A stretch of 64,000 nucleotides of DNA from Escherichia coli (GTDB taxonomy: Bacteria > Pseudomonadota > Gammaproteobacteria > Enterobacterales > Enterobacteriaceae). Position numbers and translations under genes: made by a program. Of this stretch, positions 49,878 through 49,985 are shown piece by piece. Positions within the stretch are counted from its first letter, which is position 1, and each line of letters begins with the position of its first letter. Below the pieces are notes generated by a model. That model saw only the letters and a list, made by a program, of their open reading frames with translations. It made no database searches and was not told where the DNA came from. The stretch is taken from assembly GCF_030384885.1 (NCBI RefSeq), contig NZ_CP128613.1. One strand, 5' to 3'.

Positions 49878-49985
49878 ACATTAATAACTCTTGACCTTTC
49901 CTGACATTTTCCATATTCGCAATCATATTCTGTTTAGACGTTGTTTATAAACATCATGCATAATGAAATCGTCATGTTATTTGGC
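49878..49985. promoter_or_regulatory. Pair of 21-bp direct repeats upstream of the fimbrial operon
   Basis: ATGTTATTTGGCCATATAAAA (49878-49898) and ATGTTATTTGGCGATATAAAA (49965-49985), one mismatch, about 240 bp upstream of the fimbrial major subunit start. Confidence 0.35.

Follow-up and report, generated by a model that had tools for sequence, protein, structure and literature searches.

The two 21-bp direct repeats found near the start of a fimbrial operon in Escherichia coli DNA (a stretch of 64,000 nucleotides, hereafter the window) bracket the sigma-70 promoter of the F9 operon. They are best explained as paired, AT-rich and weakly palindromic protein-binding sites, most likely for H-NS, a reading that we hold with about even confidence. 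Judged by their positions in aligned sequences, the two repeats are the two flanking pairs of H-NS motifs that were predicted in 2014 for the orthologous promoter of strain CFT073. Much of this is already known: the repeats lie in a promoter that has been characterised and, as they coincide with predicted H-NS motifs, add little to its description.

F9/Fml fimbriae are of importance in chronic urinary-tract colonisation, in the colonisation of calves by EHEC and in biofilms, and are barely expressed in the laboratory. The discrete 21-mers at -103 and +14 offer targets for mutagenesis.

Repeats, promoter and predicted H-NS sites

The F9 (yde/fml) chaperone-usher operon is located between hipBA and ydeP-safA-ydeO, and the locus is up to 100% identical to E. 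coli chromosomes. The features discussed here are listed in Table 1. The transcription start of f9 was mapped in CFT073 by 5' RACE to a G residue 251 nt 5' of the ATG, and the promoter features a -35 TAGTCG, an 18-bp spacer and a -10 CATAAT (Wurpel 2014, PMC3966885). In the CFT073-like strain JJ1886, a G is present 251 nt before the ATG in the context gcataatgaaatcGtcatg, and the same context is found in the window. The f9 (c1931-c1936) promoter of uropathogenic CFT073 (Wurpel et al. 2014, PLoS One 9:e93177) is orthologous to that of the window, with identical -10 and start contexts and a -35 that differs by one base. A consensus scan also picked the same sigma-70 promoter, which aligns across alleles.

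Table 1. Coordinates in the window of the F9 genes, promoter elements and repeats. Positions relative to the inferred transcription start are given in the last column.
Feature	Position	Strand	Remarks
Third, inverted partial copy of the repeat	49796-49811	-	reads TTATTTGGCAATCTAT, also given as TTATTTGGCAAT(CTAT); -175..-160
Repeat copy 1	49858-49878	+	ATGTTATTTGGCCATATAAAA; -113..-93
Block CTTGACCTTTCCTGAC	49890-49905	+	-81..-66; invariant in 11/11 E. coli sequences
PhoP-box-like direct repeat	49931-49947	+	TGTTTA-GACGT-TGTTTA; -40..-24; overlaps -35, ends 11 bp upstream of -10
Core sigma-70 promoter (by homology to CFT073)	49935-49964	+	-35 TAGACG, 49935-49940; 18-bp spacer; -10 CATAAT, 49959-49964
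Inferred transcription start (G)	49971	+	by homology to CFT073; 252 nt upstream of the major-subunit ATG
5' UTR	49971-50222	+	252 nt, from start to ATG; AT-rich
Repeat copy 2	49974-49994	+	ATGTTATTTGGCGATATAAAA; +4..+24, first bases of the 5' UTR
F9 major fimbrial subunit gene	50223-50786	+	187 aa; annotated fimA-like, WP_024218640.1
Chaperone gene	51148-51858	+	F9 operon
Usher gene	51902-54553	+	F9 operon
ydeS	54567-55097	+	F9 operon
ydeR	55110-55613	+	F9 operon
ydeQ (adhesin)	55672-56586	+	F9 operon; the operon remainder after the major subunit is 51148-56586

The GC content of the region (49780-50222) is 30.7%, versus 45.2% for the whole window. The 5' UTR has no match in Rfam and its predicted fold is unremarkable (z = -0.96); on these grounds, a role of the repeats as RNA elements was discarded as unsupported. 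Within the sequence TGTGATTTAAAGATATTATC at 50057-50076 (approximately +87 to +106), TGTGA resembles a half-site for CRP; the sequence hardly varies between alleles, and the published putative H-NS motif at +89 overlaps it.

The repeat, ATGTTATTTGGC(C/G)ATATAAAA, occurs in two plus-strand copies that are identical at 20 of 21 positions. The copies are 116 bp apart from start to start, which corresponds to 11.05 helical turns, and the gap between them is 95 bp. With up to 3 mismatches allowed, these are the only two matches to the 21-mer in the 64 kb, where 0.01 would be expected by chance, and at up to 2 mismatches the motif is found nowhere else in the window. No 21-mer pair in 100 shuffles of the intergenic sequence was as similar, the best pairs having on average 15.1 and at most 18 identical positions.

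The first-pass annotation had given the sequence and the two occurrences of the repeat correctly. The span that it assigned, 49878-49985, takes in only the final base of copy 1 and ends midway through copy 2, and its distance of 87 bp is replaced by the values reported above. Of the two sites that it placed upstream of the operon, copy 1 is indeed there, while copy 2 is located downstream of the transcription start, within the 5' UTR. It had also seen no flanking inverted repeats indicative of a fim-like switch; a third, partial copy is in fact present on the minus strand, with 12 exact bases matching TTATTTGGCNAT.

The likeness of copies 1 and 2 is local. It consists of a core of about 24 bp and a weak 5' extension, up to about 45 nt in all (76% identity). 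A tandem duplication of 116 bp was rejected, as identity at offset 116 drops to 15-45% outside of 49834-49880 and is random on the 3' side.

The H-NS reading relies on the CFT073 promoter. Putative H-NS motifs were predicted there in silico at -111, -103, +8, +14, +57 and +89; H-NS shifts a 251-bp f9 promoter fragment in gels, and F9 is de-repressed in an hns mutant, as seen in western blots (Wurpel 2014, PMC3966885). The motif positions were obtained with Virtual Footprint, and the text consulted does not describe the motifs as a direct repeat. In JJ1886, the repeat copies are located at -112..-93 and +4..+24, and the motif starts at -111, -103, +8 and +14 are all contained in the copies, at corresponding offsets (GCCATATAAA and GCGACATAAA). 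The high-affinity consensus of H-NS is TCGATAAATT. The repeats match this consensus poorly, with 7/10 positions at +8 in the window, 8/10 at the same place in JJ1886, and fewer than 7/10 in copy 1.

H-NS presumably contacts these particular 21-mers, and bridging or looping is the mode of action that we infer. The centres of the copies, near -103 and +14, are approximately 11 helical turns apart, and the copies would therefore be exposed on the same face of the DNA. Other promoters repressed by H-NS provide the analogy for the next step: H-NS may first settle on both copies as nucleation sites, and from there either coat the 31%-GC region by spreading or link the copies by a bridge. RNA polymerase would in either case be occluded or trapped, which would keep the operon off at 37 °C.

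H-NS represses hdeAB, proU, bgl and rrnB P1 through sites located both upstream and downstream of the promoter. The F9 region is similar to these, as it is AT-rich and carries sites on both sides of the start, and its orthologue is cold-favoured and de-repressed in an hns mutant. In contrast to these promoters, the F9 sites form a recognisable sequence repeat, and are not merely AT-rich or curved DNA. The separation of 116 bp is short for a simple protein bridge. In a 2025 transcriptome study, F9 was not thermoregulated in CFT073, which counts against the H-NS reading.

The arrangement also recalls pap, with two spaced sites upstream of the gene encoding a fimbrial major subunit, separated by a near-whole number of helical turns. 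In the Dam/Lrp phase variation of pap, two GATC sites are 102 bp apart. Unlike pap, the F9 region lacks both GATC and papI/papB-like genes, and a pap-like Dam/Lrp switch was rejected because GATC is absent throughout 49700-50300.

Allelic variation of the repeat pair

The intergenic region is found in two allele classes, which are approximately 12-15% diverged. The window carries a rare allele of the F9 regulatory and 5' region (49300-50800). Of 5426 complete E. coli genomes, 18 share its intergenic region at 98-100% identity, and the allele is also found in 3 metagenome contigs; strains 2017-02-2CC and 2013C-4282 are examples of carriers. The common allele, about 85% identical, is present in approximately 4900 E. 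coli genomes. Homology to the common allele begins at about 49840 in the window, just upstream of copy 1. To the left of this breakpoint, the window features remnants of IS481 and of an alpha/beta hydrolase gene, and an ankyrin-repeat gene; at this place the common allele features instead a yneL-like AraC pseudogene. The third copy is located upstream of the breakpoint and is confined to the rare allele, in 100 bp common to only 18 genomes. Relative to CFT073, the window carries a rare allele with more nearly identical copies (20/21 versus 15/21), a third, inverted site, and upstream IS481 and hydrolase remnants.

One of the rare-allele metagenome contigs (L113, at about 9414-9416) lacks approximately 1.07 kb, corresponding to 48486-49554 of the window, with the loss of the IS481 remnant and of the terminal part of the ankyrin-repeat gene; polymorphism thus extends to the upstream island. 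A metagenome scan for the 21-mer returned 3 true loci, all collinear, and 50 further single matches that are probably due to chance.

The promoter was aligned in 5 rare-allele and 6 common-allele sequences. In the common allele, copy 1 reads ATG[A/-]TTTATAGCCATAT[A/T]AAC and copy 2 reads ATGTTATTTAGCGACAT-AAAA; the two are identical to each other at 15 of 21 positions (P = 7e-5 for a pre-specified pair). No indels occur between the copies in any of the 11 sequences. The two copies vary to different extents. Copy 2 is uniform within each class, and three fixed differences in it distinguish the classes. Copy 1 varies within both classes (for instance, GGC/GGT in the rare allele and a 1-nt deletion in JJ1886), and its fixed differences amount to 19%, versus a regional mean of 11.7%. 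Conservation of copy 2 could merely reflect its closeness to the transcription start. The block CTTGACCTTTCCTGAC, which is better conserved than either copy, is absent from the distant orthologue described below.

A search for an outgroup, in which species genomes were scanned for the chaperone, yielded only paralogues from other genera (40-70% identity) and one Escherichia-like MAG contig; the latter, the sole match with intergenic similarity, carries the common allele. A more distant F9-like operon (L145-L147), found via protein P0078, has the same six-gene order and about 70% nucleotide identity, and adjoins yhiN/pitA-like genes. After anchoring on the -10, its promoter core could be aligned to that of the window. 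L145 retains the PhoP-type hexamers, TGCATAAT and TCAnGTTAnTTG, the latter being the opening half of copy 2. Neither the remainder of copy 2 nor the copy 1 core is kept there, and the two operons differ by 18 nt in spacing. The contigs found via P0063, P0070 and P0093 contained no upstream DNA for this comparison.

These data bear on a reading in which the repeat has no function. Local duplication or micro gene conversion would have copied about 24-45 bp of promoter-proximal sequence to a place 116 bp upstream, and copy 2 would be kept only because it abuts the transcription start. The weak 5' similarity, 45 nt at 76%, is what a duplication tract would leave. Copy 1, which is polymorphic and has lost one nucleotide in JJ1886, changes at least as fast as the background, and its core is unrecognisable in L145. 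The identity values of 20/21 in the rare and 15/21 in the common allele are compatible with decay and with recent conversion alike. The pair nevertheless persists at homologous positions, with unchanged spacing, across two allele classes that are about 12% diverged, and both copies coincide with H-NS motifs that were predicted independently. We consider such a relic a doubtful explanation, although one to be taken seriously.

Another reading takes the repeats as operators of a sequence-specific dimeric regulator, such as an H-NS antagonist of the MarR/SlyA type; binding at both sites would bend the promoter into a loop or make it stiffer. The core of copy 1, TTATTTGGCCATATAA, is self-complementary at 14 of 16 positions and that of copy 2 at 12 of 16, around a G+C centre, as in the operators of dimers; however, this dyad symmetry is not significant alone, being equalled by 6% of shuffles. 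The third site of the rare allele, 65 bp upstream, is related in sequence, and within the 64 kb the sites are found at the F9 promoter only. The two copies also differ in concert between classes: position 10 is G in both rare-allele copies and A in both common-allele copies, which makes the rare sites less AT-rich, a point against H-NS. One concerted position in a single allele comparison has an estimated probability of approximately 20-25% by chance, and as a single event is not compelling; in addition, copy 1 is poorly conserved. Matches to the SlyA consensus (8-9/12) are at chance level, as 23% of shuffles are as good.

No intact regulator gene is located nearby. A locally encoded regulator was rejected, since the yneL-like gene is a generic AraC pseudogene, and the fragments with HTH domains in the window are remnants of IS481 and Xre genes. 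The pseudogene encodes a generic HTH_18 domain, closest to RclR and RhaS, and is absent from the rare allele; the searchable literature contained nothing relevant that links yneL to the F9 promoter. Sites for a fimbrial activator of the AraC/Rns type would go with a cognate activator gene linked to the operon, and none is found, the upstream yneL-like gene being a pseudogene. Altogether, we regard a dimeric regulator of this kind as unlikely.

Binding by H-NS at paired sites is the reading that we prefer, and the first-pass suggestion of paired binding sites for a regulator still describes the repeats best. The copies bracket the promoter, coincide with 4 of the 6 putative H-NS motifs and are kept in the common allele. 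The suggestion holds less well for the individual sites, as copy 1 evolves fast and only half of copy 2 is kept in L145. Loss of the repeats from orthologous loci had been named as evidence against such sites; the repeat is kept, though degenerate (15/21), in the common allele of about 4900 genomes.

Inverted copy and short reading frames

The third copy (49796-49811) is inverted relative to copies 1 and 2, and in the rare allele it might form, with copy 2 or alternatively copy 1, the inverted repeats of an invertible promoter segment similar to that of fim. The sequence at 49797-49811 pairs with 49977-49991 at 13 of 15 positions, in the rare allele only, and the 12-nt exact inverted match within it, TTATTTGGCNAT, brackets the promoter from -175 to +21. 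F9 fimbriae are close relatives of type 1 fimbriae, and a loose resemblance links the core TTTGGCCA to TTGGGGCCA, the inverted repeat of fim. The two systems share further traits, as both are gamma-1 fimbrial operons in which a repeat element and a long 5' UTR come after the promoter.

Unlike fimS, however, the F9 promoter lacks neighbouring genes similar to fimB/fimE and shows no polymorphism of orientation, and it has no significant homology to fimS. All instances of the rare allele, in 18/18 genomes and 3/3 metagenome contigs, are collinear and in one orientation (21 instances). The upstream inverted copy is missing from the approximately 4900 common-allele genomes, which match at one collinear place each. 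Annotation of the window and its flanks shows no recombinase gene. Local alignment to fimS scored 29, versus a mean of 22 and a maximum of 31 for shuffled sequences, and no BLAST match had E < 0.007. Moreover, the pseudo-palindromic nature of the motif accounts for the inverted match. An invertible segment is thus highly improbable. The first-pass annotation had discarded a fim-like switch because it saw no inverted repeats; its conclusion is right and its premise wrong, the grounds for rejection being collinearity, the lack of a recombinase and the lack of homology to fimS.

The repeats may alternatively encode the starts of small peptides, since both copies begin with ATG and would be read as ATG TTA TTT GGC SAT ATA AAA, or MLFG(H/D)IK. 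Copy 2 would then start a nearly leaderless regulatory leader ORF at +4, which comprises 23 codons in the window (49974-50045, MLFGDIKKSLKILSTTSAVISLL) and 19 in its common-allele counterpart. After codon 7, the frames of the two alleles part at a 1-nt indel, and the resulting peptides are unrelated; the copy 2 ORF is therefore unlikely to encode a conserved peptide. The ORFs starting in copy 1 have 5-8 codons and are variable, and copy 1 is located upstream of the transcription start. A function of the repeats as peptide starts is hardly credible.

A PhoP-type box at the -35 region

PhoP boxes conform to the pattern (T/G)GTTTA-N5-(T/G)GTTTA and are usually found at the -35 of PhoP-activated promoters in E. 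coli (PMC7667037). The criterion used here was a match with no more than 2 mismatches at the -35 region. The direct repeat at 49931-49947 is the sole perfect match to KGTTTA-N5-KGTTTA in the 64 kb, where 0.02 are expected. Across three E. coli allele types and L145, a single hexamer position out of 12 is variable, in contrast to every one of the 5 in the spacer (Fisher p = 0.001). The layout of a PhoP-type box, 11 bp and CATAAT is also found in L145, at 2735-2790.

The box, together with the adjacent safA-ydeO genes, suggests on sequence grounds that F9 is controlled by a PhoP-activated, H-NS-silenced promoter, activation probably being exerted through the conserved box overlapping the -35. 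Promoters of this type include Salmonella pagC and ugtL, and E. coli mgtA and mgrB carry the box at -35. The F9 promoter is similar to these in its zero-mismatch box, poor -35, good -10, AT-rich composition and binding by H-NS. No link between PhoP and F9, ydeT or FmlH was found in the searchable literature. The box, apparently unreported, is a more useful lead than the repeats, and points to low Mg2+, or acid via SafA, as the candidate activating signal.

In a broader scheme, F9 would be an unrecognised PhoP-activated and H-NS-silenced promoter, driven by the perfect box at -40..-24, and the 21-bp pseudo-palindromes at -103 and +14 (with a third at -168 in the rare allele) would be operators for a specific anti-silencing or looping regulator, as opposed to generic H-NS sites. 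We judge this combination decidedly unlikely. If true, it would tie a widespread "cryptic" adhesin to the neighbouring EvgS-SafA-PhoQ/PhoP acid/Mg2+ circuit, safA-ydeO being located just downstream of the operon.

Two further observations concern the upstream and downstream regions. L145 features a direct repeat of its own, ATGTTAA[C/A]AATTGA, at 2530-2543 and 2573-2586; the copies are 43 bp apart and are located further upstream. In E. coli K-12 and many strains of group A, a deletion has left the F9 promoter in place, along with both copies of the repeat and the PhoP box. This K-12-type deletion starts at about +74 (equivalent to 50044 in the window; L004 3204) and joins the 5' UTR with sequence from the middle of the usher gene, the product being the ydeT pseudogene.
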